A DNA stretch of 62,634 nucleotides, filler included, from Nitrospinota bacterium (GTDB lineage: Bacteria; JAUXIQ01), in assembly GCA_030620925.1 (NCBI GenBank). It is 12 parts of 12 records of this genome, joined end to end, with 100 filler letters (N's around TTAATTAATTAA, not from the genome) between each part and the next. Parts side by side here need not be neighbours in the genome. Positions count along the whole stretch, not along the records: positions 49,787 to 56,902 come from JAUXIQ010000099.1; 11 more parts are not named here. One strand, given 5' to 3'. Below, piece after piece: positions 3,603 to 61,652 of the stretch (positions are counted from its first letter, which is position 1; the number at the start of each line of letters is the position of its first letter). The position numbers and the translations under genes are program-made. The notes under the pieces are model-generated. The model was not told where the DNA came from, did no database searches, and saw nothing but the letters and a program-made list of their open reading frames with translations.

Positions 3603-4634
3603 GAAGAGCTTACCCCCGCTCAACAGAGGAGCCTGCAGGAAGAAATGAATCTCCAGGTAATCGATAGAGCACAGCTCATCCTGGAGATTTTCGCCAAGAG
3701 AGCCAGAAGCAGCGAAGGAAAGCTCCAGGTCGATCTGGCGCAGTTGAAATATATGCTTACCCACCTGGTGGGCAGGGGTATCACCATGTCGCGCCTGGGA
3801 GGGGGGATAGGCACCAGGGGGCCGGGAGAAACACAGCTCGAAGTGGATAGACGGAAAGTCCACCGCAGGATATATAAACTTGAGAGAGAGCTTGAGGCGG
3901 TAAAGAACAGAAGGCGCGTGCAGCGGAAGGGGAGGAGGTCACTACAGCTTCCCTCGGTGGCCCTGGTGGGATACACCAACGCCGGTAAATCGACTCTGTT
4001 CAATGCCCTCACCGATGCCGACGTGCTCACCGAAGACAAACTCTTCGCCACACTCGACCCCACCATAAGGAGGCTGCCCTTGCCCGATGGAGGCTCGGTG
4101 GTGATTTCCGACACGGTGGGCTTCATAAGAAAGTTGCCACACGAGCTGGTGGCGGCTTTCAAGGCCACTTTGGAAGAAGTGATTGAAGCGGACCTTATCC
4201 TCCATGTAATAGACGCCTCAAGCCCGCGATGGGAGGAACAGGCGATTATAGTGAACCAGGTTCTGGAGGAGATAGGTGCCGTGAACAAACCGGGCATAGA
4301 AGCGCTGAACAAAATAGACCTGGTTGAGAGCAGTCAGGAAGTCAAAAGACTGATCTTCAACTTTGAAAACGGTATCCCTGTTTCCGCAAAATATGGGCGG
4401 GGGCTCGACGAAGTGCTGAAAGCCATTCAGACCTCACTTCATGCGGTCGTTCGCCACGTGAAATACACCATCCCTTATGACCGTGGTGACATTATTTCCA
4501 TGCTGCATGAAAAAGGGAAAGTATTACGCAAGGAATACGGGCGGAATGCGGTGGTGATAGAAGCCGATATAGAACATCGCTACGCCGACACCCTTGAGCA
4601 GTTCGAAGTGAGGAAAACGGAAGGAAATGAATAG
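3603..4634 (+). CDS. hflX: GTPase HflX, 5' truncated
   Basis: ELTPAQQR..., [46 protein letters not shown]. Confidence 0.95.
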
Positions 4635-4846
4635 AGCCTGAAGCCGGTCTGTCTTATAATATAATTGATCCTCGAGGTACTCATGAAGTGGAAGCGTGGC
4701 GAGGAAGGCGTATTCATTTCCACCATTGGTAATAACTAAAACCTGATGTAACGGTTTGAGGGTTAATTCGTAAATGTCGGATATTTAGTATGAGAGAGTT
4801 TATATCTCGATAGACCCGGCACGAAGTTAAAGGATAGGGCATCAGT

Positions 4847-5419
4847 TTGAAGATGGGAAACAGTTACAGGAACATAATAATAATCGGCTTCAAGACCTGT
4901 GGCAAGAGCACCGTGGGGAAAGCGGTTGCAGAACGCGCGGGTTTGGAGTTCGTCGACTCGGATCAGGCCCTGGAAGAGCAGCACAAACGCAAAACGGGGC
5001 AGGCCGAAAGCTTCAGGGAAATCTATCGCAAGATGGGAAAGGAATATTTCCGAAACCTCGAACGGGAGGTTTTGAACGATATAGTGAAAGACAGGGAAGG
5101 AGTTATCGCCCTTGGCGGGGGAAGTCTTACCGAGGTGCCCGATCCTGAGGGGCTTCTGAAGGGGAGTTTTTGCGTCTACCTTTCTGTGGAGCCGGAGACA
5201 CTTTTCTCCAGAATAATGTCCGGAGGAATGCCCGCTTTTTTCAATCGTGAAGACCCTAAAGTTGCCTTCCGTGAGTTATACGAACAGAGGCTTCCGCACT
5301 ACAGACGATTAGCTGATATCATGGTGGATAATACGGACCGCTCGGTGGATGCTGTGGTGGATGAAATACTGGAGGAATTTGAAAACCGACGTTCCGGCGT
5401 CGGTCGAGGACAGAGCTAA
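4847..5419 (+). CDS. aroK: Shikimate kinase
   Basis: P-loop GFKTCGKST, DSD, FRxxE, GGG, RxxxY; directly precedes aroC. Confidence 0.9.
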   Translation: MKMGNSYRNIIIIGFKTCGKSTVGKAVAERAGLEFVDSDQALEEQHKRKTGQAESFREIYRKMGKEYFRNLEREVLNDIVKDREGVIALGGGSLTEVPDPEGLLKGSFCVYLSVEPETLFSRIMSGGMPAFFNREDPKVAFRELYEQRLPHYRRLADIMVDNTDRSVDAVVDEILEEFENRRSGVGRGQS

Positions 5420-21304: not shown

Positions 21305-21853
21305 TTATCGGCGCCGCCTGATCGTTCCCAACCGTTTCTCAAGCAGTTGGATGCGCTCCTGCTGGAGATTGACCATGTTTCTCAGGACTTCGATAGTCTC
21401 CTCTAGCTCCTTTATCCGATAGCGCTCAAGAGTCGCGGCGCCGGCGGTTCCGGCTTTTTCGGCTCTCTGGGATTGGATTGTCCCCAACCGCTCTTCTATT
21501 TGCTGATTACGTTCCTGTTGGAGATTGACCGTTTTTCTCAGGGCCTCGATAGTCTTCTCCATTTCGTTTAACCGGTAGCGCTCGATTTGCAAGGCGGCAG
21601 CCGTTTCGGTTTTCTTTTCTTTCTTCTTACGCTTGGCGACGGTGATTTTAGCCTTTTCTTTGCGGCTCTTCCTCTTCTTTTTTACTTTTTTAACCTTTTC
21701 TTTTTTCTTGGCCGGCTTTTCAGCGGGCGGCTCGACGGTCTTGGCGGTTTCCACGTGCCCGATTCTATATTGTTTGACGGAGGTCTCACCGAAACATCCC
21801 GCCAGCATAAGGGAGATTATAATTGGGAAAGCAATTAACAATTTACGAATCAT
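21305..21853 (-). CDS. Hypothetical lipoprotein with Lys-rich linker and duplicated coiled coil
   Basis: Lipobox LAGC, poly-Lys stretch, two ERYR...VNLQQER...RLGTI repeats; GGAGG RBS. Confidence 0.75.
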   Translation of the reverse strand: MIRKLLIAFPIIISLMLAGCFGETSVKQYRIGHVETAKTVEPPAEKPAKKKEKVKKVKKKRKSRKEKAKITVAKRKKKEKKTETAAALQIERYRLNEMEKTIEALRKTVNLQQERNQQIEERLGTIQSQRAEKAGTAGAATLERYRIKELEETIEVLRNMVNLQQERIQLLEKRLGTIRRRR

Positions 21854-29491: not shown

Positions 29492-30256
29492 TCTCCTCCC
29501 CCTTGACCCCGCTTTCCGCTGGGTGTTCGCCCTTGATCACCCTCCCTTAATCCCTCCCCTCAAGGGAGGGAGACTCTAGTATCGTGTGAAATTCTGAGTC
29601 GTTAATAGGAGCACTACGCGACAGGCGGGGTCAAGGGGGAAGAGACCTAATACCTCCCTTTACATTTTTATTTTAGTCGGCGGTGTATGATTACGAAATC
29701 TTTCGAGCTGCCAACTTTCCCCTCCCCTGGCCCCGCTTTCCGCGGGGCAGGCATGGAGAGGAAAAAGGGGAGGGGAATTTGAATAGCGCAAGAGAAAGCG
29801 GGCTTGCACGGGTAGGCGGGATTCAGAATGACAGGATGCTGAGTCGTAGGGGCAATCCCGCGTGTGGCGAGATCAAACCTGCCCTATCGGGGCGTATGCA
29901 ATACGCCCCTACAAGTGCGCCTTTCCCGCGTATGGCGGGACTACAGGAGTTTGACGGCCTGGCCCATCAATTGTAGGAGCGGCCATGAGAGATAAACACA
30001 CCCGCTGGCTACTGTCATTCTGAGCGAAGCGAAGAATCTCGCATATCTTGGCTACCGAGTGCCTCTTTTTACGGGGTGTATTGTTGTAGGGGATTAAGGG
30101 AGGGTGGTCATGGGCGACCGGCCGATCGCCCCTACGAGTCTCAAAGTTCCCTATAACGTCACGTAGGGGTGTCCCGCGTATGGCGGGATTCAGAATGACA
30201 GGATGCGGGAATGCGCCCTGGGCAGGGCAGCCTCGCGGCAGGCAAGGACGCCCCTG
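29492..30256. repeat. Cluster of REP/REPIN-like palindromes and other short intergenic repeats
   Basis: GTAGGGG../..CCCCTAC units; inverted pairs 29492-29512/29625-29645 and 29528-29554/30089-30117; 25-nt direct repeat 29815-29839/30182-30206; GTCATTCTGAGCGAAGCGAAGAATCTC at 30014-30040. Confidence 0.8.
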
Positions 30257-43675: not shown

Positions 43676-43968
43676 TGCCGGTACCTGTATTTGTGCGGGC
43701 GGGAAGGGGATCGCAGGGGCGAATCCCGGCGACTCGCACGAAAGGGGTTTAATAGGGAAGATGGTGAATCGCTTCTCGCAGTGAGAGGATAGATGAAGCC
43801 ATCGCGGTCCCGCCGCTGTGACCGGGTACGAAACCTCCGACCGGCGCAGGATGCACTCGCAAAACAGATCAGCGCTGCATTCCTGCACGGGAAGCCACTG
43901 GGCGGCCTGAGCCGCCTGGGAAGGCGGGGGAAGTAGGATGGATCCGGGAGTCAGAAGACCTGCCGGCA
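43676..43968 (+). ncRNA. Cobalamin (AdoCbl) riboswitch
   Basis: AATAGGGAA..GGTG, CCCGCCGCTGTG, GCCACTG, GGGAAGGC, B12 box AGTCAGAAGACCTGCC; upstream of cbi operon. Confidence 0.93.
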
Positions 43969-44104
43969 TGCGGTTGTTCGTCGCTTCGGGGAAGCGGGGG
44001 CGGCCGCTGAAAGCTCATAATGCTGAATCTAATGACAGGCGATAATAGCCTCCAATTCAGTGTTAATTGTGCTTTCAGTTTAAAAGGGTGAAGAAACTGG
44101 GTGC

Positions 44105-49786: not shown

Positions 49787-51469
49787 CCCAGCGCCGCGGA
49801 AAGTACTATCTTCAACCAGCAGGAGCTGGATGCGGGTCTCAGGCTCTCCTGCCAAACGGAGCTGACGGACGACCTCGCAGTGGACACCACACCCCAGAGG
49901 GAGGCGGAGTCCCTCCAGATACTCACTCAGGGGATTGGAAGGGAAACGGAGTTAAGCCCTGCCCTGAAAAAAATAGAGCTCGATCCGATAGAACCTTCCC
50001 TTGAAGACCAACGGGCCGACTGGGAACGGGTAAAAGATGCCGTAAAGGAAAAGTTCGGCGTTACCCTGCAACCCCCGAAGCGTGAACTGTTCCAGGAGCT
50101 CCCCGGCATTCTCAGGAAAAAGGGGGGTGCCCTTTCCATTTTTCTACACGGAAACGATATCCTGGAACTGGCCGGAGACAGCGAAAAGGGGCTCTACGGA
50201 GTGGCCCTGGATATGGGGACCACTACCGTGGTGGGCTACCTCATGGACCTCGAGAAAGGAAAAGAGCTGGCGGTAGCTTCCACGTTGAACCAGCAGTCAG
50301 ACCACGGCCATGACCTGATGTCACGCATAACTTACGCCCAGACGAGCGAAGACGGACTCAAGACGCTTCACGAAAAAGGAATAGCCTCCGTTAACAGGGT
50401 CATGGCGGAGCTGGCGGACGAAGCGGGTATCAGTGCCACCGATATCTACCATCTCACAGTGGTGGGTAATACCTGTATGCACCACTTTTTGCTTGAGCTT
50501 GACCCCCGCAACGTCGGGCTCTCACCTTATATCCCGGTGCTCACCGGCGCTTACACGGCCGAGGCCGGGGAACTGGGTATAAATGTGAACCCCGGGGCGG
50601 CGGTTGATTTCCTGCCCAACGTAGCAGGGTTCGTGGGGGCGGATATCGTGGGCGTCCTGCTCACCACCCTTATTCATCGAAGTCAGGAAATCTGCATCGC
50701 CCTGGATATAGGCACCAACGGTGAGATAGCCATGGGCAGCAGGGACGGCGTGCTGGTATGCTCCACGGCGGCGGGACCGGCCTTCGAAGGAGCCAGAATA
50801 AGGCACGGCATGCGTGCTTCAGCGGGTGCCGTTCATCGGGTGCACGTGGAAGACGGCGCACTGGTTGTGGAGACCGTCAATGAACAACCGCCCGTGGGGA
50901 TATGCGGCTCCGGTCTGATAGACGCGGCTGCCCTGCTCCTCAATCACGGACTGATGGACGAATCGGGTAGAATCCTGCTATCTTCAGAGGTACGGGAAGA
51001 CGATTCCGCATTCCTTAAGGAACGGCTTTACGAGGATGAAGACACCAGGGGGTTTATTGTGGCTTACCCCCACGAGTCTACCACAGGGGATGCGGTGGTA
51101 ATAACCCAGCAAGACATCAGAGAGCTTCAACTGGCCAAAGGAGCTATCTTCGCCGGTATCCAGATGCTAAAAAAAGAATTGGGCATAACCGATGAGGACG
51201 TGGCCAAAATCTATCTTGCCGGGGCCTTCGGAAATTATCTGAACCCCGCCAGCGCAATGCGTATGGGCCTTATACCGTTCGTGCCGCTTAAAAAAGTGGT
51301 GAGCATCGGCAACGCCGCCGGGCATGGGGCTCGGCTGGCGCTTCTCTCCACGCGGGAGATGGAGCAGGCTGAAGAAATAGCTTCCAGCATGAGGTATATA
51401 GAACTTGCGGTCATGAAGGACTTCCAAGACCATTTCATCCAGGCCATGAACTTCCCCGCTCAACTTTGA
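49787..51469 (+). CDS. ASKHA-family reductive activator of corrinoid proteins (RACo/DUF4445), 5' truncated
   Basis: End of 2Fe-2S domain (GLRLSCQ), DMGTTT, VGNTCM, FVGAD, DIGTNGE, AGPAFEG, GICGSG, LAGAFG, GNAA. Confidence 0.92.
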   Translation, partial: PSAAESTIFNQQELDAGLRLSCQTELTDDLAVDTTPQREAESLQILTQGIGRETELSPALKKIELDPIEPSLEDQRADWERVKDAVKEKFGVTLQPPKRELFQELPGILRKKGGALSIFLHGNDILELAGDSEKGLYGVALDMGTTTVVGYLMDLEKGKELAVASTLNQQSDHGHDLMSRITYAQTSEDGLKTLHEKGIASVNRVMAELADEAGISATDIYHLTVVGNTCMHHFLLELDPRNVGLSPYIPVLTGAYTAEAGELGINVNPGAAVDFLPNVAGFVGADIVGVLLTTLIHRSQEICIALDIGTNGEIAMGSRDGVLVCSTAAGPAFEGARIRHGMRASAGAVHRVHVEDGALVVETVNEQPPVGICGSGLIDAAALLLNHGLMDESGRILLSSEVREDDSAFLKERLYEDEDTRGFIVAYPHESTTGDAVVITQQDIRELQLAKGAIFAGIQMLKKELGITDEDVAKIYLAGAFGNYLNPASAMRMGLIPFVPLKKVVSIGNAAGHGARLALLSTREMEQAEEIASSMRYIELAVMKDFQDHFIQAMNFPAQL

Positions 51470-51613
51470 CCGGGTATTGACGCTCCGTCGGACACTGTGC
51501 TAATGTTTTGCCGCAGCCTGGAGAAAAAGACGTTTGGGAAATATTTTTGAACCCCGTGTTCCGCGGGGCATTCAAACTTCTTGCAAAAGCTTTTATGTTA
51601 AGTTGAGAGAACA

Positions 51614-51961
51614 ATGCGTAAGGATAAAGAGCTGAGGGTAAACGAGCACCCCATACTCGGTAGTGCTGAAGAAAGGCCCCGGGTGAAAATAAAGGTGGAC
51701 GATCAGTGGATGGAGGCCATCGAAGGGGAGCCGGTGGCCGCCGCGCTCATGGCTTCAGGAAAGATGGTCTTCCGCTACACCACCAGACTGAACGAGCCCA
51801 GGGGAGTGTTCTGCGCTATCGGCAGATGCACCGACTGCATGATGACTGTGGACGGTATCCCCAACGTCCGCACCTGCATAACTCCGGTCAGGGAAGGGAT
51901 GGTGATCCTGACCCAGAGAGGCGAAGGCAGATGGGAGGGCATCAGCTTTGAAAAAGGTTGA
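51614..51961 (+). CDS. [2Fe-2S] subunit (HcnA / sarcosine-oxidase-alpha N-terminal-like)
   Basis: EHPIL, GEPVAAAL, FCAIGRCTDCMM, RTC. Confidence 0.88.
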   Translation: MRKDKELRVNEHPILGSAEERPRVKIKVDDQWMEAIEGEPVAAALMASGKMVFRYTTRLNEPRGVFCAIGRCTDCMMTVDGIPNVRTCITPVREGMVILTQRGEGRWEGISFEKG

Positions 51962-53030
51962 ACTGGCCGTGATCGGCGCCGGCCCTGCCGGCCTTTGCGC
52001 CGCCATAGAAGGGGCGAAGCACGGCCTTCAGGTAACTCTCATAGATGAAAACATCCGGGCGGGAGGCCAGCTTTTCAAGCAGATACACAAATTTTTCGGT
52101 TCCGGGGTGCACCGCGCCGGAATCAGGGGAGTGGATATCGGCTCCCAGCTTCTGGACGAAACAGAGAAAGCGGGTGTTGAGGTTATGCTGGACACGGTTG
52201 TGTGGGGTCTGTTCGAAGACAAGGTCCTGGCCCTTGTCCACGAAGGACGCAGCACCCAGCTCAGCGCCGAGCGAATCATCCTGGCCGCGGGAGCCACGGA
52301 AAACGCACTGGCCTTCCCCGGCTGGACGCTGCCCGGTGTAATGGGCGCGGGTGCGGCGCAGACGATGATGAACATGCATCGCGTTATGCCGGGCAAGAAG
52401 GCCATCATGGTGGGCTCCGGGAACGTGGGGCTGATCGTGGGCTACCAGCTTATTCAGGCGGGCATCAAGCTTGAGCTACTGGTGGAAGCGGCTCCTGAAA
52501 TCGGAGGGTATTCAGTCCACGCAAGCAAGCTCGCGCGCAACGGCGTAAAAATTTTCACCTCCACCACCATTAAAGAAGCGAGAGGTGATGAACGGGTGGA
52601 GAGCGCGGTGACCGTTTCCGTGGATGAGAATTGGAATCCCGTGCCCGGCACTGAAAGAGAACATGAAGTGGACATGGTGTGCCTTGCCGTGGGCCTCTCA
52701 CCTCTCATCGAACTTGCCAGGCTGGCGGGGTGCGGATTCAAATACCTCTCGGAGCTGGGGGGGCATGTCCCGCTGCACGATGAAAAGATGGAGACGACTC
52801 AGCCGGGCATTTACGTTGCCGGTGACATTGCAGGTATAGACGAGGCCAGCACGGCCATGGAAGAAGGCAGAATCGCTGCCCTGGCGGCGGCCGAATCGCT
52901 GGGACGATTGGGCGGCGAAGAGGCGGACGCTCTTAAAAAGAGCGCCAGGAAAAGGATGGAAGAATTCTGGGACGGCTCCTTCGGCCGCCGGGTGAAGGCG
53001 TCCAAGGAGAGCCTGTCCGTTAAGGAGTAA
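51948..53030 (+). CDS. NAD(P)/FAD-dependent oxidoreductase subunit (HcnB/PdhA-like, without C-terminal BFD domain)
   Basis: GAGPAG, GGQLFKQIHKFFGS, FPGWTLPGV, GSGNVG, VAGD. Confidence 0.88.
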   Translation: MKKVELAVIGAGPAGLCAAIEGAKHGLQVTLIDENIRAGGQLFKQIHKFFGSGVHRAGIRGVDIGSQLLDETEKAGVEVMLDTVVWGLFEDKVLALVHEGRSTQLSAERIILAAGATENALAFPGWTLPGVMGAGAAQTMMNMHRVMPGKKAIMVGSGNVGLIVGYQLIQAGIKLELLVEAAPEIGGYSVHASKLARNGVKIFTSTTIKEARGDERVESAVTVSVDENWNPVPGTEREHEVDMVCLAVGLSPLIELARLAGCGFKYLSELGGHVPLHDEKMETTQPGIYVAGDIAGIDEASTAMEEGRIAALAAAESLGRLGGEEADALKKSARKRMEEFWDGSFGRRVKASKESLSVKE

Positions 53031-53036
53031 AGAAAA

Positions 53037-53528
53037 ATGACTTTGTTGAAAGACGGCGTTTTGACAAATGAAGAACTGGAAGCACTGCCCTGCGTGCCCG
53101 GCCGGGAAAGAATGGAAAAAGGCGCAGTGGTGGTTATCGAATGTCCGCAGGACATTCCTTGCAACCCCTGCGAACCTGCCTGTCCCAAAGGGGCCATCGT
53201 GGTCGGGGGACCCATAACCAACATACCCGTCCTCAAAGAAGACCTCTGCGACGGGTGCGGGCTCTGCGTTGCTCCCTGCCCGGGGCAGGCCATATTCGTG
53301 GTCGACCTCAATCACGGGAATGATGAAGCGGCGGTGAGCCTCCCCTACGAATTCCAGCCGCTGCCCGATAAGGGGCAGAAGGTGAAGGCTCTGAACCGGC
53401 GCGGCGAGGCCGTTCATGAAGGGACGGTGGTGAAAGTTCTAACACCTTCTTCCTTCGACAGGACGGCGGTGATTACCGTTACCGTGCCCAAAGAGCTGGC
53501 CATGGAGGTGCGCAGCATACGCCTGTAG
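53037..53528 (+). CDS. 2x[4Fe-4S] subunit
   Basis: CPQDIPCNPCEPACP and CDGCGLCVAPCP, PYEF.PLP. Confidence 0.88.
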   Translation: MTLLKDGVLTNEELEALPCVPGRERMEKGAVVVIECPQDIPCNPCEPACPKGAIVVGGPITNIPVLKEDLCDGCGLCVAPCPGQAIFVVDLNHGNDEAAVSLPYEFQPLPDKGQKVKALNRRGEAVHEGTVVKVLTPSSFDRTAVITVTVPKELAMEVRSIRL

Positions 53529-53536
53529 CGAGACAG

Positions 53537-53700
53537 GTAGGGGCGAGCGGTGCCAGCCTTTTATCACCCTCCCCTCAAGGGAGGTGAGCTTCAACTAAGC
53601 TGAACGCTCTTTAATAGTGAGGTAATAGTTGATATGAAAAGTGTGGTATCCGTTTTCCTCCCACTTTACCCCGCCTTCCGCGGGAGGACTCGCCCTTAAC
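53537..53700. repeat. Degenerate REP-like repeats inside the dehydrogenase cluster
   Basis: GTAGGGGCGAG...CTCGCCCT, TCACCCTCCCCTCAAGGGAGG, CCCGCCTTCCGCGGG. Confidence 0.6.
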
Positions 53701-53814
53701 CTTGAGTCAGGGAGAAAAGGCTAAGCGGAATACCAGCTTTAAAGAAATAAATTCAAATAAATTACTACAAAATCAATTACTCAAGTATATTATTATATAC
53801 AAGAGGTTAAACTA

Positions 53815-54081
53815 TTGAATGAACTGATAATTTGTAGATGTGAAGAGGTAACAAAAGATGAGATTCTGGAGGCCATCGGCGCCGGGGCCATCTCTATAAA
53901 CGCCATAAAAAGATTGACCAGGGCGGGAATGGGCCTCTGCCAGGGAAAGATTTGCTGTCGACTGTTGAGCCTGCTGCTTTCCGATGAGCTCAAAACTCCG
54001 CTCGGCGAATTGGAACCTTATTCGGTCAGGCCGCCGGTGAGGCCGGTGAAGTTTTCTGCGTTGATAGCTGATGAAGAATGA
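53815..54081 (+). CDS. BFD-like [2Fe-2S] subunit
   Basis: ICRCEEV, TRAGMGLCQGKIC, RPPVRPV. Confidence 0.88.
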   Translation: MNELIICRCEEVTKDEILEAIGAGAISINAIKRLTRAGMGLCQGKICCRLLSLLLSDELKTPLGELEPYSVRPPVRPVKFSALIADEE

Positions 54082-54099
54082 AGAGGCGGTTAATATCTG

Positions 54100-55227
54100 A
54101 TGGAAAAAAGCAGCGACCGCATCGTGATAGCAGGAGGTGGAATCATAGGCTGCGCCATCGCCTATTACCTTGGTCTGAAAGGAGTCAAGTCCACGGTGAT
54201 AGAGCGCAGGGACGTGGGCTGTGAAGCCTCCAGCGCGGCGGCGGGGGGCCTCTGGCCCCAGGCGGAATCCTCTCGGCCCGGCATGTTCATGGACCTCTGC
54301 CTGGCCGGAAACGCAATGTTCGAGGAGCTTTCACGCCAACTTGAGCTGGATATAGAGTTCAGGCCGTCTGGCCTGCTGCACGTCGTTGAGGACGAGCAGT
54401 ACCGGGAAGAAGCTGAAAAGCTGATGGAATGGCAGCTAGACAGCGGCCTTAAAGTAGATTGGCTGGACGCTTCCGAAACCCTCAAACTTGAGCCTTCACT
54501 ATCAGAAGACGTAATGGGCTCCCTCTATTTCCCGGATGACAACCATCTGAACCCCCTCAGCCTCACCAGAGCATTCGCCGTGGGCGCCAAAAAATTAGGG
54601 GCGGAAATATCCACCGGCACGTCTGTCACGGGCATCAAGACCGTCTCGGGGCGGGTATCATCCTTGGTCACCGACCGTGGCGAAATCGGTGCGGACATCA
54701 TCATCAACGCCGCCGGCTGCTGGGCCGGCCAGGTGGGCGCCATGGTGGATATGGAGGTGCCCGTGGAACCTGTCCGGGGCCAGATAATACTCAGCGAACC
54801 GCTGCCACCGCTGTTCAAGAGGTGCATCGTAACCAGGGACGTCTACATTATTCAAAAACCGCGGGGGAACGTGGTGGTGGGCAGCACCCGGGAGTTCGTG
54901 GGTTACGACAAGAGCGTCACTCCCGAAGCCATTCACCTGCTGCACCGGGGAGCCGTAAAGGCCATACCCAGGCTCAAAAGCGTATCCTTCATAAGGGCCT
55001 GGGCGGGTCTCAGACCCTACACGCCCGACGAGATACCCATTATGGGTGCTTCCGATGGGCCGGAGGGTTTCCTGCTGGCCACCGGGCATTTCAGGAACGG
55101 TATACTGCTATCGGCTATAACCGGCAAGCTCATGTCTGAGCTGATAACCGATGGGAAAGCTTCAATCCCCCTGGAAGGCTATCGGTTGTCCCGGTTCCTG
55201 CGGGGCGCTGAAGTGGAACGCAAATAA
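54100..55227 (+). CDS. FAD-dependent D-amino-acid-oxidase-family protein (glycine oxidase ThiO / HcnC-like)
   Basis: AGGGIIG, ASSAAAGGLW, PVRGQ, VGSTRE, WAGLRP, TGHFRNGILLSAITG. Confidence 0.85.
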   Translation: MEKSSDRIVIAGGGIIGCAIAYYLGLKGVKSTVIERRDVGCEASSAAAGGLWPQAESSRPGMFMDLCLAGNAMFEELSRQLELDIEFRPSGLLHVVEDEQYREEAEKLMEWQLDSGLKVDWLDASETLKLEPSLSEDVMGSLYFPDDNHLNPLSLTRAFAVGAKKLGAEISTGTSVTGIKTVSGRVSSLVTDRGEIGADIIINAAGCWAGQVGAMVDMEVPVEPVRGQIILSEPLPPLFKRCIVTRDVYIIQKPRGNVVVGSTREFVGYDKSVTPEAIHLLHRGAVKAIPRLKSVSFIRAWAGLRPYTPDEIPIMGASDGPEGFLLATGHFRNGILLSAITGKLMSELITDGKASIPLEGYRLSRFLRGAEVERK

Positions 55228-55293
55228 CCCGTTTATTGATAGGGGAAAATAAGTGTTGACTTTATTCTTAAATTAGATGTAAATTTAGTTTAA

Positions 55294-55377
55294 GGCCGTA
55301 GGGGTGTTTTATTACTGAGAGTCTTTAAGACAACCCTTCGAACCTGATCTGGATAATCCCAGCGTAGGGAAGCGGCC
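55294..55377 (+). ncRNA. TPP riboswitch
   Basis: AGGGGTG..CTGAGA..ACCCTT.GAACCTGATCTGGATAAT.CCAGCGTAGGGA closed by GGCCG/CGGCC P1; upstream of thiS. Confidence 0.95.
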
Positions 55378-55408
55378 GGCTGAATCGAAAACATATAAAA
55401 CCAATTCA

Positions 55409-55441
55409 GGCCGCGCTTCCAGGTGAAGTGCGGCTTTTTTT
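55409..55441 (+). terminator. Terminator of the TPP riboswitch expression platform
   Basis: GGCCGCGCTTC-CAGGT-GAAGTGCGGCT-TTTTTT. Confidence 0.85.
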
Positions 55442-55468
55442 ATGATCACGCGGACGGAGCGCGAGGTA

Positions 55469-55669
55469 ATGAATATAACCGTAAACGGGGAAGAGATAAC
55501 CATTGAGAGCGTGGGCACCATCGAGGTACTCCTCCAGGTGCTGAAAATAAACCTGAAAGGCTGCGCCGTGGAGCGCAACAGGGAGATAGTTCCCAGGAGC
55601 AAGTTCACATCAACACCCGTCGAAGAAGGCGATCACCTGGAGGTCATTCAGATGGTGGGCGGCGGTTGA
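55469..55669 (+). CDS. thiS: Sulfur carrier protein ThiS
   Basis: 66 aa, [13 protein letters not shown]-terminal VGGG. Confidence 0.95.
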
Positions 55670-55744
55670 GGGGCAACTCAGGTGAACGCTTTTTCAGGAA
55701 GGGACACCTCTGATAATCAACACTAAAAGAGAGGTAGCGGTAAA

Positions 55745-56533
55745 ATGACAACGAACTTTGAAGACGACTACCTTGAACTGGGAGGAAAAAAATTCAAATC
55801 CCGGCTCCTGGTGGGCACGGGCAAATACGATTCCTTCCAGCAGACAAGGGAGGCCATCGAGAAAGCGGGGGCCGAGATAGTCACCGTAGCCGTGCGCAGG
55901 GTGAATATTACCGATAGCTCGAAAGAATCGCTGCTGGAATACGTGGACCCCGAGAAATACACCATCCTCCCCAATACCGCCGGCTGCTATACCGCCGATG
56001 AAGCTGTGAGGACCTGCCAGCTCGCCAGGGAAGCCGGTGGCTGGAACATGGTGAAGCTGGAAGTCATCGGAGACGAGAAGACCCTGTTCCCGGATAATGA
56101 GGGGCTTCTCGAGGCGGCGAAAATCCTGATCAAAGATGGTTTCACCGTTCTTCCCTATACCAACGACGACCCGATTATGGCCAAAAAACTCGAAGAAGCG
56201 GGCTGTGCGGCGGTGATGCCGCTGGCCGCCCCCATCGGTTCGGGATTGGGCATCCGAAACCCTTACAACATCCGGATAATATTAGAACACGCCAGCGTGC
56301 CGATAATAGTCGATGCCGGAGTGGGGACCGCTTCCGACGCCGCCATCGCCATGGAGCTGGGCTGCCACGGAGTGCTGATGAACACGGGCATCGCCGGAGC
56401 CGATAACCCCATCCTGATGGCCGAAGCCATGAGGCAGGCCATTGAGGCGGGCAGGAAAGCCTACCTGGCGGGCAGAATACCCAAAAAGCTGTACGCCGCG
56501 GCCAGCAGCCCCATTGAGGGGACGATAGGGTGA
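55745..56533 (+). CDS. thiG: Thiazole synthase
   Basis: [36 protein letters not shown]. Confidence 0.97.
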
Positions 56534-56902
56534 GCGTACCATCCTCACGAAAAGATAAAGTGGATTTCAAGGTCTACCTTATCACCGACAGGAACCAGGC
56601 GCTGGACAGGCCGTTGGAGGAAGTGGTCGGCCGGGCCGTGGGAGCAGGGATCAAAGCCGTGCAGCTGAGGGAGAAGGACCTGCCCGGCCGGGACCTGTTC
56701 TTCCTCGCCGAGTCGCTGAGGAAAGTTACCGAAGGGGCGCGCCTTCTCATAAACGACCGCTCTGATATAGCGGCGGCGGTAGGTGCCGACGGGGTGCACC
56801 TGACGCAGAACAGCATCTCTCCAGGCTACGCAAGAAAACTGTTGGGGCCTGACAGTCTCATCGGGCAATCGACCCATTCAGTTGAGGAAGCCCGCATCGC
56901 CC
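56530..56902 (+). CDS. thiE: Thiamine-phosphate synthase, 3' truncated
   Basis: YLITD, QLREK, INDR, GVHL, STHS. Confidence 0.88.
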
Positions 56903-57002
56903 NNNNNNNNNNNNNNNNNNNNNNNNNNNNNNNNNNNNNNNNNNNNTTAATTAATTAANNNNNNNNNNNNNNNNNNNNNNNNNNNNNNNNNNNNNNNNNN
57001 NN
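56903..57002. other. Artificial contig linker
   Basis: N44-TTAATTAATTAA-N44. Confidence 0.98.
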
Positions 57003-61373: not shown

Positions 61374-61652
61374 GGTAGGAGCGGTATCTTGCCGCGTCTA
61401 GTAGGGCGACCGTCCCGTGTGACGGGATTACCCCTACGAATACCCAACCACGAAGTCTCAATGTAGGGGCGGGTTTGAACCCCGCCCAATTTGGGCGTAT
61501 GGAGTACGCCCCTACCCCCTGTTTATCCCGGCGATTTGAGGGATTGTATTCGGCCTTTGAAAGGGCGATCACAAGGATCGCCCCTACGACAACCAACGTT
61601 CCCAACAACGTCTCGTAGGGGCGTCCCGCGTTCTGCGGGACAGCGCCCCTGC
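61374..61652. repeat. REP/REPIN-like cluster
   Basis: GTAGGGCGACC...CCCCTAC (61401-61437), GTAGGGGCGGGTTTGAACCCCGCCC (61463-61487), GGGCGTATGGAGTACGCCCCTAC (61493-61515), GGGCGATCACAAGGATCGCCCCTAC (61563-61587), GTAGGGGCG...CGCCCCTGC (61615-61652). Confidence 0.85.

Follow-up and report, generated by a model that had tools for sequence, protein, structure and literature searches.

The question raised by this locus is what a set of five redox genes immediately upstream of thiS-thiG-thiE encodes, and whether its product may provide the thiazole synthase ThiG with its glycine-derived building block. The stretch of DNA that was analyzed (the window, 62,634 nt) consists of 12 contigs joined by N-linkers, and the contig studied here covers positions 49787–56902. 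The layout described in the earlier note was confirmed: five co-oriented genes are followed on this one contig by a TPP riboswitch and thiS-thiG-thiE, all on the plus strand. The five genes encode an HcnA-like [2Fe-2S] subunit (51614..51961; Fer2_4, Pfam PF13510, 98.4 bits), a FAD/NAD(P)-type reductase subunit (51948..53030; Pyr_redox_2, 122.4 bits), a ferredoxin-like 2×[4Fe-4S] (4Fe-4S dicluster) subunit (53037..53528; Fer4 families), a BFD-like [2Fe-2S] subunit (53815..54081; Fer2_BFD 45.4 bits, SO_alpha_A3 44.3 bits), and a catalytic FAD subunit of the ThiO/HcnC type that is a candidate glycine dehydrogenase (54100..55227; DAO, 279.5 bits); all five carry the corresponding cofactor-binding motifs. 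Downstream are the riboswitch aptamer with a terminator-type expression platform (55290..55441), thiS (55442..55669; TIGR01683, 71.4 bits vs 37.45), thiG (55745..56533; PF05690, 387.6 bits), and the N-terminal 124 residues of thiE (56530..56902; TMP-TENI, 101.9 bits, profile positions 1–110 of 180), which is cut by the contig end; the N-run starts at 56903. Since the contig stops inside thiE, a thiH gene or ordinary thiO gene may lie past its end.

The adjacency of the flavoprotein gene and the thi genes is not an assembly artefact, because contigs from other public runs, of which X1 may represent the source sample, bridge the junction. The stretch from the DAO stop codon to the riboswitch is spanned by X1 record 5 (54217–55402) and X5 record 21 (55161–55429), and that from the riboswitch to thiS by X2 record 15 (55280–55618) and X6 record 28 (55359–55610). 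One public contig extends 1138 nt further than the present one. The runs that contain the stretch and name their source are nearly all marine sediment, cold seep, or marine metagenomes; the listed holders, one of them a soil metagenome, are drawn from 12 studies.

The gene order Fer2_4, PyrRedox, Fer4, BFD, DAO is the same in the window, in a Nitrospinota MAG locus (L001; subunits 70–82% identical to those of the window), and in a second locus (L060; 54–64%), and the genes of the unit overlap or abut in these relatives. The five genes thus form a conserved unit, which supports the note's reading of them as one dehydrogenase. A gene for a RACo/AcsV-like reductive activase precedes them (49787..51469, plus strand; RACo_C_ter 281.5, Raco_middle 195.7, and RACo_linker 50 bits; NCBIfam AcsV 375.7 bits, below the cut-off of 800). 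Its reading frame runs open to the contig start, where the end of an N-terminal [2Fe-2S] domain is visible. The activase gene is also upstream of the unit in L001 (69.6% identity) and is not upstream of that in L060; it is a possible member of the unit.

The Fer2_4 subunit occupies the same position in L001 (81.6% identity) and L060 (64%); a PDB sequence search with it gave no match at E ≤ 0.01. Its gene is overlapped by 14 nt by the start of the reductase gene. The reductase is the counterpart of the N-terminal two thirds of HcnB and of the middle of SoxA: it aligns to positions 171–497 of the NCBIfam soxA model (131 bits), and its PDB matches are thioredoxin reductases (69 bits), SoxA (2gag_A, 58 bits), and PDH1 alpha (1y56_A, 57 bits). 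The BFD-like subunit is equivalent to the C-terminal portion of HcnB and to the A3 domain of SoxA, and its C7, C9, C42, and C47 are invariant in three sequences. In the 4Fe-4S subunit, C36, C42, C45, C49, C71, C74, C77, and C81 are invariant among 35 aligned homologues, and a conserved β-rich C-terminal domain is present. The AlphaFold model of this subunit has a pLDDT of 92.0, and a whole-chain PDB fold search with it gave no match at E ≤ 0.001. The 286-nt spacer between the Fer4 and BFD genes (53529..53814) contains a GC-rich palindromic repeat element and an AT-rich tail. X6 record 26 reads across the spacer, which has short matches to 29492–29747 in the window and gave no match in an Rfam search. 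It is absent from the relatives, in which the Fer4–BFD gap is ~80 nt (L001) or the two genes overlap (L060).

The flavoprotein scores 287.1 bits on the ThiO model TIGR02352 (NCBI cut-off 250.8), and all 14 members tested of its clade exceed the cut-off (260.9–298.6 bits), as against none of eight true HcnC proteins (223.4–243.9). Seven ThiO-clade proteins, five of them thi-linked, scored 277–328 bits; at E ≤ 1e-40, ten other partner-bearing subunits scored 150.6–206.7 and three more gave no match. Its PDB matches include glycine oxidases (201.7, 187.1, and 159.5 bits) and the β subunit of PDH1 at 148.7 bits (1y56_B). R305, Y249, and R332 are, by alignment, the counterparts of Arg302, Tyr246, and Arg329 in the glycine oxidase of B. 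subtilis (1ryi). The equivalents in the B. cereus enzyme bind the substrate carboxylate, as described in part of PMC3818420. At seven compared columns the window residues (A48, L51, Y249, L281, F331, R332, L336) are those of the clade majority: 13 of 13 clade rows are identical at six columns (L281, 85%), 8 of 8 HcnC rows likewise at six (L336, 88%), and the majority residue of the thi-linked ThiO rows is the same as in the window (76–100%). In the proline-dehydrogenase-like clade, position 249 is S (83%) and position 332 is G (100%). By alignment, the flavoprotein thus keeps glycine-oxidase-type carboxylate ligands that are lost in proline-dehydrogenase-like subunits. The motifs noted earlier hold on both sides, since PVRGQ aligns with PVKGE of 1ryi, in which GHFRNGILL is unchanged, and AGGLW and SAITG align with identical strings in P. 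aeruginosa HcnC. Identity is 37% to the latter (to which L151 is 62% identical) and 35–42% to thi-linked ThiO, and the HcnC insert of 31–34 residues, found in 8 of 8 rows, does not occur in the window clade (segment of 45–48 vs 14 residues). The clade is small (13 proteins at ≥50% identity).

In three trees the flavoprotein grouped with subunits that bear partner proteins (HcnC, LhpB, SoxB, opine type), and none of the 19 thi-linked ThiO fell with this group. The window clade and HcnC were joined in two IQ-TREE trees with SH-aLRT values of 85 and 80, neither starred, and a tree excluding HcnC had the higher likelihood (AU p = 0.694). HcnC is the nearest named clade in those two trees, with a sister relation that is not significant and a deep placement left open by the AU tests. 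The earlier note had named a grouping with proline or sarcosine dehydrogenases as evidence against its proposal. The flavoprotein does sit with the partner-bearing subunits and not with ThiO, but placement with ThiO is not rejected (AU p = 0.305) and the active site is of the glycine type. The ThiO/HcnC-like assignment itself stands, with the score over the ThiO cut-off, the retained ligands, and HcnC as nearest named relative.

The TPP aptamer (55290–55388; RF00059, 68.7 bits vs 54.3) is followed by a terminator-like hairpin at 55408–55436 and a T-run. The flavoprotein gene ends 63 nt before the riboswitch on the strand of thiS-thiG-thiE, and no terminator-like site was found in between; the gene lies directly upstream of the thi genes, as claimed. 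All five genes precede the riboswitch and are hence outside TPP control, again in agreement with the note. The promoter-like TTGACT that it pointed out at 55256 does not count as evidence for a promoter, because such sites (9/12 match) are no more frequent than in shuffled sequences (2 vs 2.4 ± 1.6). The neighborhood repeats the set of thiO, thiS, thiG, and thiE common to 13 thi-linked loci. In L074 and L103 the riboswitch directly precedes thiS and thiO lies downstream of it; in L080 it is ~3.6 kb upstream of thiG.

Linkage of the five-gene unit to thi genes was seen in one genome only, and the expected conservation of linkage to thiG could not be demonstrated: L001 breaks off within the flavoprotein gene, and around L060 neither a thi gene nor a TPP riboswitch lies within 10 kb. 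The L060 result says little, because among 30 ordinary ThiO-clade loci flanked by 5 kb on either side, just 6 carry thi genes at a distance of up to 6 kb. In the MAG of the L001 relative (G001), no thiH was found, although this MAG is too incomplete to count and also lacks thiG, and a search of the same incomplete MAG for a second ThiO-like gene gave nothing above 23.5 bits. The description of the organism as an apparent anaerobe could not be established: G001, from a 74%-identical relative, encodes a protein of the heme-copper oxidase family (COX1, 283.9 bits), so that O2 may be available to the lineage.

The five genes are best explained as encoding a single soluble heteromeric dehydrogenase with flavin and iron-sulfur centers, of the HcnABC or dye-linked amino-acid dehydrogenase kind. 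Judged from sequence, it is a candidate glycine dehydrogenase resembling HcnABC, in which HcnB is split and a ferredoxin subunit is added. The catalytic subunit would bind glycine via Arg305, Tyr249, and Arg332 and oxidize it to iminoacetate (dehydroglycine). Unlike in stand-alone ThiO, the reduced flavin would not be re-oxidized by O2; electrons would pass through the BFD-like and HcnA-like [2Fe-2S] centers and the 2×[4Fe-4S] subunit to the reductase FAD, and from there to NAD(P)+ or another acceptor. The iminoacetate would most likely serve ThiG, whose operon directly follows, and the complex would then be an O2-independent stand-in for ThiO or ThiH. Such a role is plausible but tentative, resting on linkage in one genome. 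It is supported by the conserved unit, the ThiO-like catalytic subunit, its glycine-type site, the kinship to HcnC, and the thi adjacency, by the mostly marine-sediment and seep habitat, and weakly by the lack of thiH and of a second ThiO-like gene in G001; it is weakened by the single-genome linkage, the position outside TPP control, the contig end inside thiE, the COX1-family gene of G001, and the grouping with mostly catabolic partner-bearing enzymes.

It is somewhat doubtful, but deserves weight, that the complex is a catabolic or energy-linked dehydrogenase for glycine, sarcosine, or another small amine, which would yield glyoxylate and ammonia, pass electrons to NAD(P)+, ferredoxin, or the respiratory chain, and adjoin thiSGE by coincidence. 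To our knowledge, the characterized enzymes with this partner set are all catabolic or make secondary metabolites, and the partner-set loci fetched are of LhpB (L154), opine (L152 and L153), and SoxB (L155) type. The solitary L060 cluster, the lack of riboswitch control, and the widespread ferredoxin-like family (934 homologues at E ≤ 1e-5), which implies a general-purpose electron module, also agree with this. However, the L060 case carries little weight at the linkage rate of ordinary ThiO-clade loci, no gene for a transporter, an aminotransferase, glyoxylate handling, or regulation adjoins the cluster in any of the three loci (window, L001, L060), and a rare ThiO-scoring clade would seldom be expected by chance immediately upstream of thiS-thiG-thiE. 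The order of the genes equals that of hcnA-hcnB-hcnC (L151, L164) and the nearest named relative is HcnC, and HcnABC-like clusters of anaerobic lineages, including Asgard archaea, are read as HCN synthases in a portion of PMC13635244. Nevertheless, a variant HCN synthase that converts glycine via iminoacetate to HCN and CO2 is improbable given the low identity to HcnC, the missing insert, the split HcnB with the inserted ferredoxin subunit, and the unstarred sister relation together with the likelier tree excluding HcnC; moreover, no cyanide-detoxifying gene is nearby, whereas L164 has a rhodanese ~3 kb beyond its hcnC homologue.

The subunit inventory also recalls the heterotetrameric PDH, the existence of which is documented in part of PMC8704557, and PDH1 beta is among the PDB matches of the flavoprotein. 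A dye-linked dehydrogenase of the proline, hydroxyproline, or opine type with a larger amino acid as substrate, like the archaeal αβγδ PDH, is nonetheless quite improbable, as equivalents of Tyr246 and Arg329 are missing from the PDH-like clade, which scores 174–207 bits on the ThiO model, compared with 261–299 for the window clade; P0079, whose best PDB match is 1y56_B (180 bits), shares with it a G at the Arg329 position. Very improbable is an ordinary O2-dependent ThiO placed by chance after four unrelated redox genes. Such a ThiO would agree with the score over the equivalog cut-off and with the NCBI pipeline name 'glycine oxidase ThiO' of P0131, a relative at 52–53% identity, but the order and tight spacing of the five genes are kept at 54% protein identity (L060), Fer2_4 or BFD neighbors occur in 0 of 19 thi-linked ThiO loci, and the partner set is precisely that of HcnA, HcnB, and SoxA.

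Among known systems, HcnABC of Pseudomonas and Chromobacterium, which oxidizes glycine, shares with the window the order [2Fe-2S], Pyr_redox_2/BFD, and DAO protein, and HcnC shares Y249, R305, R332, AGGLW, and SAITG. Its first step is said by Blumer and Haas to be the conversion of glycine to iminoacetate, which is the reaction proposed for the window complex. In contrast to HcnABC, HcnB is divided into two genes in the window with the 2×[4Fe-4S] gene, which has no HcnABC counterpart, in between, and the catalytic subunit exceeds the ThiO cut-off, lacks the HcnC insert, and stands beside thiSGE. ThiO, the stand-alone FAD glycine oxidase (B. subtilis, 1ng3/1ryi), has in common with the window protein its length, the absence of the insert, the carboxylate ligands, and the position next to thiS-thiG-thiE; it differs in lacking the four conserved redox partner genes, found in none of the thi-linked ThiO loci, in lying downstream rather than upstream of the TPP riboswitch, and in using O2, where an Fe-S chain is the presumed acceptor in the window. 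The Thermococcales dye-linked L-proline dehydrogenase, SoxABGD, OdhABC, and LhpBEF combine, as does the window, a DAO β subunit with a Pyr_redox_2 α subunit and small Fe-S subunits, and the archaeal heterotetrameric PDH has a ferredoxin-like γ subunit. Enzymes of these types use dyes or cytochrome c instead of O2, according to a section of PMC4575208. Unlike the window complex, those of the proline, SoxABGD, opine, and LhpBEF types act on larger amines and are encoded in catabolic gene clusters, and in their β subunits other residues stand in place of the Tyr246 and Arg329 equivalents that the window protein keeps. The radical-SAM tyrosine lyase ThiH, which supplies dehydroglycine to ThiG without O2 (as stated in part of PMC9046217), is a functional analogue only: its product is the one proposed for the window complex, whereas protein and chemistry are unrelated and the substrate is tyrosine, as opposed to the glycine proposed here.

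The contig of interest (49787-56902) is one of the 12 short contigs that, with N-linkers between them, make up the window. It opens with a RACo/AcsV-like gene (49787-51469), whose frame is open at the contig start, and five genes follow on the same + strand. The first, at 51614-51961, encodes a Fer2_4 [2Fe-2S] protein, and the second, at 51948-53030, a reductase of the Pyr_redox_2 type. Next are the genes for a dicluster 4Fe-4S protein (53037-53528) and, at 53815-54081, for a BFD-like [2Fe-2S] protein with an additional match to the A3 domain of sarcosine oxidase. The fifth gene (54100-55227) encodes a DAO-family flavoprotein. A TPP riboswitch (55290-55388, + strand; 68.7 bits, with the gathering score at 54.3) begins after a gap of 63 nt, in which no terminator-like site was seen, and its terminator-type hairpin is located at 55408-55436. 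On the 3' side of the riboswitch, thiS and thiG follow on the + strand, and then thiE, of which 124 codons are present before the contig ends. The end thus falls inside thiE, as the earlier note had pointed out; a public contig (record 8 of run X1) extends 1138 nt past it. The same note had cautioned that the complex is not under TPP control, and all five genes are indeed 5' of the riboswitch. The TTGACT at 55256, which it took for a promoter-like site, did not hold up because it matches at 9/12 and is not more frequent than in shuffled sequence. The same-strand adjacency of the five genes and the riboswitch-thiS-thiG-thiE segment is real, since contigs from different studies bridge it. The junction between the flavoprotein gene and the riboswitch was bridged by record 5 of run X1 and record 21 of run X5, and that between the riboswitch and thiS by record 15 of run X2 and record 28 of run X6; these are public sediment and marine runs, of which X1 is possibly the source sample. 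There were no RNA runs among the listed runs holding the stretch.

The ferredoxin-like and BFD-like genes are separated by a 286-nt spacer (53529-53814), which contains a copy of a GC-rich palindromic repeat and a subsequent 90-nt AT-rich stretch. The repeat copy is missing from both related loci described below but was found in contigs of other runs, and the spacer was spanned by record 26 of X6. No Rfam family was detected in it. Short GC-rich palindromic repeats of one family, with cores such as ATCACCCTCCCCTCAAGGGAGG and CCCCGCYTTCCGCGGG, occur at 53529-53814, 29492-29747, and 61478-61640. Elsewhere in the window, a 1008-residue ORF running into a contig end (17978-21001) and a 182-residue ORF (21305-21853) gave no Pfam match at E <= 1e-5, and a cobalamin riboswitch (43710-43981, 83.3 bits) precedes a run of cobyrinic-acid diamide synthase-like, CbiX/CbiC, and CbiM/CbiQ genes.

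Pattern scans based on an alignment of close relatives of the flavoprotein yielded 59 loci from GTDB genomes and 80 loci from JGI metagenomes, among which two close relatives were found. The first, L001, belongs to a Nitrospinota MAG (G001); this contig encodes a flavoprotein 74% identical to that of the window and ends inside the DAO gene. Its gene order, RACo, Fer2_4, PyrRedox, Fer4, BFD, and DAO, is the order of the window. The reductase gene of L001 (2343-3631) is split over two frames (residues 1-203 and 186-360) about 100 nt apart, for which either an error in the assembly or a frameshift or small insertion would account. The second, L060, is a 57-kb metagenome contig with a flavoprotein 54% identical, in which the Fer2_4, PyrRedox, Fer4, BFD, and DAO genes overlap or abut. 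The neighboring genes are unrelated and encode malic enzyme, an outer-membrane protein, and, on the opposite strand, an EamA transporter. Four partner genes, with the domain content of HcnA, HcnB, and SoxA, are thus conserved with the flavoprotein in the window, L001, and L060, and from this conserved, tightly packed gene order we infer that the encoded subunits may form a physical complex. The RACo/AcsV-like protein, a reductive activase with an ASKHA ATPase and an N-terminal [2Fe-2S] domain, scored 375.7 bits on the AcsV model, far below the cut-off of 800. Its gene is directly 5' of the five genes in the window and L001 (3-1925) but not in L060, and a functional tie to the unit was set aside because the synteny is confined to this close pair.

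The ferredoxin-like subunit comprises 163 residues. Its eight invariant Cys form two CxxCxxCxxxCP-like groups, and its tail is conserved and rich in beta structure. Its fold was predicted with a pLDDT of 92.0 and gave no whole-chain fold match in the PDB at E <= 0.001; the dicluster part alone resembles the ferredoxin domains of ABCE1, RnfB, DPD, and HdrA. At E <= 1e-5 the family numbers 934 homologues, including many with 56-66% identity from Chloroflexota and deltaproteobacterial MAGs. Since this family is large and the flavoprotein clade is small (13 proteins at >=50% identity), the electron module may serve other catalytic subunits as well.

The earlier note described the flavoprotein as ThiO/HcnC-like, and both model scores and active-site residues bear this out. 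On the NCBI ThiO equivalog model TIGR02352, the flavoprotein scored 287.1 bits against a cut-off of 250.8, and all tested members of the window clade, i.e. the flavoprotein and its close relatives, passed (14/14, 260.9-298.6 bits). Proteins of the ThiO clade (five thi-linked proteins, that of locus L002, and a Methylomirabilis protein named ThiO) scored 277-328 bits, whereas none of eight true HcnC proteins passed (223.4-243.9 bits). Among other partner-bearing subunits, 10 gave 150.6-206.7 bits and three had no match at E <= 1e-40. P0030 and P0134, a small unnamed group intermediate in position between true HcnC and the window clade, carry an HcnC-like insert (41 residues) yet are barely above the cut-off (252.1 and 253.5 bits). 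A relative with 52-53% identity is named 'glycine oxidase ThiO [Nitrospinota bacterium]' by the NCBI pipeline. The best PDB sequence matches of the flavoprotein were glycine oxidases (201.7, 187.1, and 159.5 bits), followed by the proline dehydrogenase (PDH) beta subunit 1y56_B (148.7 bits), and SoxB was far lower (65).

R305, Y249, and R332 of the flavoprotein, which are invariant across the window clade, align with Arg302, Tyr246, and Arg329 of the B. subtilis glycine oxidase 1ryi (chain offset 13). An account of the B. cereus glycine oxidase describes Arg302 as catalytic, within the WAGLRP loop, and the equivalents of Arg302, Tyr246, and Arg329 as binding the substrate carboxylate (PMC3818420). 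In an 80-row alignment, A48, L51, Y249, L281, F331, R332, and L336 were the majority residues in all three of HcnC, ThiO, and the window clade; agreement was 13/13 rows at six columns and 85% at L281 in the window clade, 8/8 rows at six columns and 88% at L336 in HcnC, and 76-100% in thi-linked ThiO rows. In contrast, in a large clade of 'sarcosine oxidase beta-like' proteins from anaerobes, position 249 is S in 83% and position 332 is G in 100%. This clade is proline-dehydrogenase-like: its member P0079 matched 1y56_B best in the PDB (180 bits), and G occupies the position of Arg329 in both. Since the flavoprotein shares the ThiO/HcnC-type residues and differs from the PDH-like clade, its site is of the ThiO/HcnC type for a small alpha-amino acid, not of the PDH type.

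A FastTree phylogeny was built from 248 DAO-family rows, which included 120 listed homologues minus P0001 (a 99% twin), 127 complete ORFs taken from 158 loci, and one second DAO. ORFs with a truncation or frameshift, among them the ORFs of L001 and L047, were left out. The window fell inside a clade of 112 rows (support 100) that contained all eight rows with Fer2_4 or BFD neighbors, together with LhpB and SoxB. None of the 19 thi-linked rows was in this clade; 19/19 were in the sister clade of 127 rows, and no Fer2_4 or BFD neighbors were found at the 19 thi-linked ThiO loci. For four rows of this clade of 127, the one match nearby was weak and reductase-like, without a Fer2_4 or BFD match, and at two of them (L003 and L006) this match is 23% identical and on the opposite strand. 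The nearest outgroup was the Vibrio locus L151 with the gene order hcnA-hcnB-hcnC, the DAO protein of which shares 62% identity with P. aeruginosa HcnC and with many proteins annotated as HcnC subunits of cyanide-forming glycine dehydrogenase. L151 (3305-6194) and the Salinivibrio locus L164 (5291-8257 and 11360-12340), whose match is 80% identical to the L151 protein, are true hcnABC homologues on Vibrionaceae chromids that NCBI labels as generic oxidoreductases; in L164, genes for an amino acid carrier and a rhodanese-related sulfurtransferase are present within 4 kb.

IQ-TREE analyses on selected rows (80 rows with LG+C20 and 42 rows with LG+G4) recovered the partner-bearing clade, window included, with a support of 99 in each tree. 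The window clade grouped with HcnC at 85 and 80, both unstarred, and ThiO sequences were paraphyletic around the partner-bearing clade and the group of the window clade and HcnC. In AU tests on the 42-row set with LG+G4, constraining the window clade with ThiO cost 10.3 lnL (p = 0.305), and placing it with the other partner-bearing clades, without HcnC, gave a likelihood 8.5 above the free search (p = 0.694). The tree suggested by the earlier note therefore had a divided outcome: the flavoprotein groups with partner-bearing subunits, away from thi-linked ThiO, and a ThiO placement is not rejected. The window clade thus stands at a junction of ThiO, HcnC, and the catabolic beta subunits whose deep order the AU tests do not settle, and it keeps the site of both glycine enzymes.

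The five-gene cluster is the immediate same-strand 5' neighbor of thiS-thiG-thiE, and its neighborhood therefore matches the set of thiO, thiS, thiG, and thiE common to 13 thi-linked loci. Against a thiamine link, the five genes precede the riboswitch. In L074 and L103, the riboswitch is directly 5' of thiS and thiO is downstream, and in L080 it is on the same strand ~3.6 kb upstream of thiG. No TPP riboswitch was detected at eight other complete partner-bearing loci (L060, L027, L033, L047, L151, L152, L158, and L164) or at L001, which is cut inside the DAO gene. There was also no thi gene within 10 kb of the L060 cluster. This counts for little, because thiS, thiG, or thiE is present within 6 kb in just 6/30 ordinary ThiO-clade loci with >=5 kb on both sides. 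Among 40 ORFs of >=150 aa in the rest of the window, no thiH-like or additional thi gene was found, and tblastn of the window with ThiE, ThiF, ThiD, and ThiO revealed nothing beyond the known genes. In G001 (3.1 Mb, >540 contigs), thiH and a second ThiO-like gene were not found, thiG was likewise missing, and thiC was present but cut. Since thiG is missing too, this MAG is too incomplete to serve as a proxy for presence or absence, and searches across its taxon yielded no genome other than G001. Another G001 contig (L162, C189) carries at 4361-4996 a stand-alone thiE, 46% identical to that of the window operon and without thi neighbors, which is probably a second paralogue.

The window encodes 2-oxoacid oxidoreductases that depend on ferredoxin, together with a cobalamin pathway of the CbiX type, and its DNA recurs in metagenomes from cold seeps and marine sediment. 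In G001, a gene of the COX1 family is present (283.9 bits), and cytochrome bd was not found. With this COX1-family gene in a relative, the 'apparent anaerobe' of the earlier note is not established.

The five genes very probably encode a heteromeric flavo-Fe-S dehydrogenase of the HcnABC or dye-linked dehydrogenase kind, whose substrate is likely to be glycine or a very small amine. We tentatively propose that this enzyme supplies iminoacetate to ThiG and may represent a third, O2-independent route to dehydroglycine in ThiH-lacking sediment bacteria. A ThiO-type flavoprotein would be coupled to an HcnAB-like Fe-S/flavin electron chain with an added ferredoxin subunit, and the glycine oxidation that serves ThiG would use NAD(P)+ or ferredoxin, in place of O2, to accept the electrons. 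The present support for this thiazole reading is one linkage together with sequence signatures. The unit could instead be a catabolic glycine dehydrogenase next to thi genes by chance, as the L060 cluster without nearby thi genes would suggest; we regard this as somewhat less likely. What is found at thiSGE is a member of the rare clade that scores as ThiO rather than one of the abundant PDH-like clusters, and at none of the three loci (window, L001, and L060) is the unit accompanied by a gene for catabolism, transport, or regulation. For these reasons, the supply of ThiG is favored over a chance adjacency.

An HCN synthase is improbable, given that the HcnC insert is missing, HcnB is split, and the sister grouping with HcnC reached 80-85 and was not favored by the AU test. 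The site of ThiO/HcnC type makes a PDH-like enzyme with a larger substrate quite improbable as well. It is highly improbable that the flavoprotein is a plain ThiO with unrelated neighbors, since the partner genes are conserved at all three loci and Fer2_4 or BFD genes accompany none of the thi-linked ThiO genes.

In the standard account, bacterial dehydroglycine is derived from O2-dependent ThiO or radical-SAM ThiH, and glycine oxidation is held to be impossible anaerobically (PMC9046217). Some anaerobes with thiG, Geobacter among them, were reported to lack thiH (PMC545781). Among the papers searched, none proposed an Fe-S-linked ThiO. If ThiG is supplied as proposed, such a ThiO would close the gap of anaerobes with thiG but without thiH, an oxidase would have become a dehydrogenase through a recruited electron-transfer module, and pipeline-named 'glycine oxidase ThiO' genes in low-oxygen organisms would need rereading. 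HcnABC-like clusters in anaerobes have recently been interpreted as HCN synthases (PMC13635244); we caution that not every such cluster is one. Even if the thiamine reading is wrong, no known relative of HcnC that is non-cyanogenic would be closer than the flavoprotein, and comparison with it would be useful for work on the second step of HCN synthesis, which is unsolved.

ThiO is a stand-alone enzyme re-oxidized by O2, whereas the window flavoprotein occurs with four conserved partner genes. The window keeps the order of HcnABC, i.e. hcnA ([2Fe-2S]), hcnB (Pyr_redox_2 and BFD), and hcnC (DAO), but unlike in L151 and L164, HcnB is divided between two genes, 51948-53030 and 53815-54081, on either side of the 2x[4Fe-4S] gene. 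P. aeruginosa HcnC is 37% identical to the window flavoprotein, from which, as from ThiO, the 31-34-residue insert after GGLW is missing; the segment has 14 residues in the window versus 45-48 in 8/8 HcnC rows. The dye-linked amino-acid dehydrogenases (PDH, Sox, Odh, and Lhp) have the same DAO beta and Pyr_redox_2 alpha subunits with small Fe-S subunits, a match that rests on Pfam and NCBIfam domains. Proline dehydrogenases of Thermococcales are a known architecture of this kind (PMC8704557), and opine dehydrogenase uses dyes or cytochrome c as the acceptor, not O2 or NAD(P)+ (PMC4575208). The architecture is thus already known from HcnABC, Thermococcales PDH, opine dehydrogenase, LhpB, and SoxAB. 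The novelty is that three features occur together: a ThiO-model catalytic subunit with a ThiO/HcnC site, an HcnB split around an added 2x[4Fe-4S] protein, and the position next to the thiazole operon.
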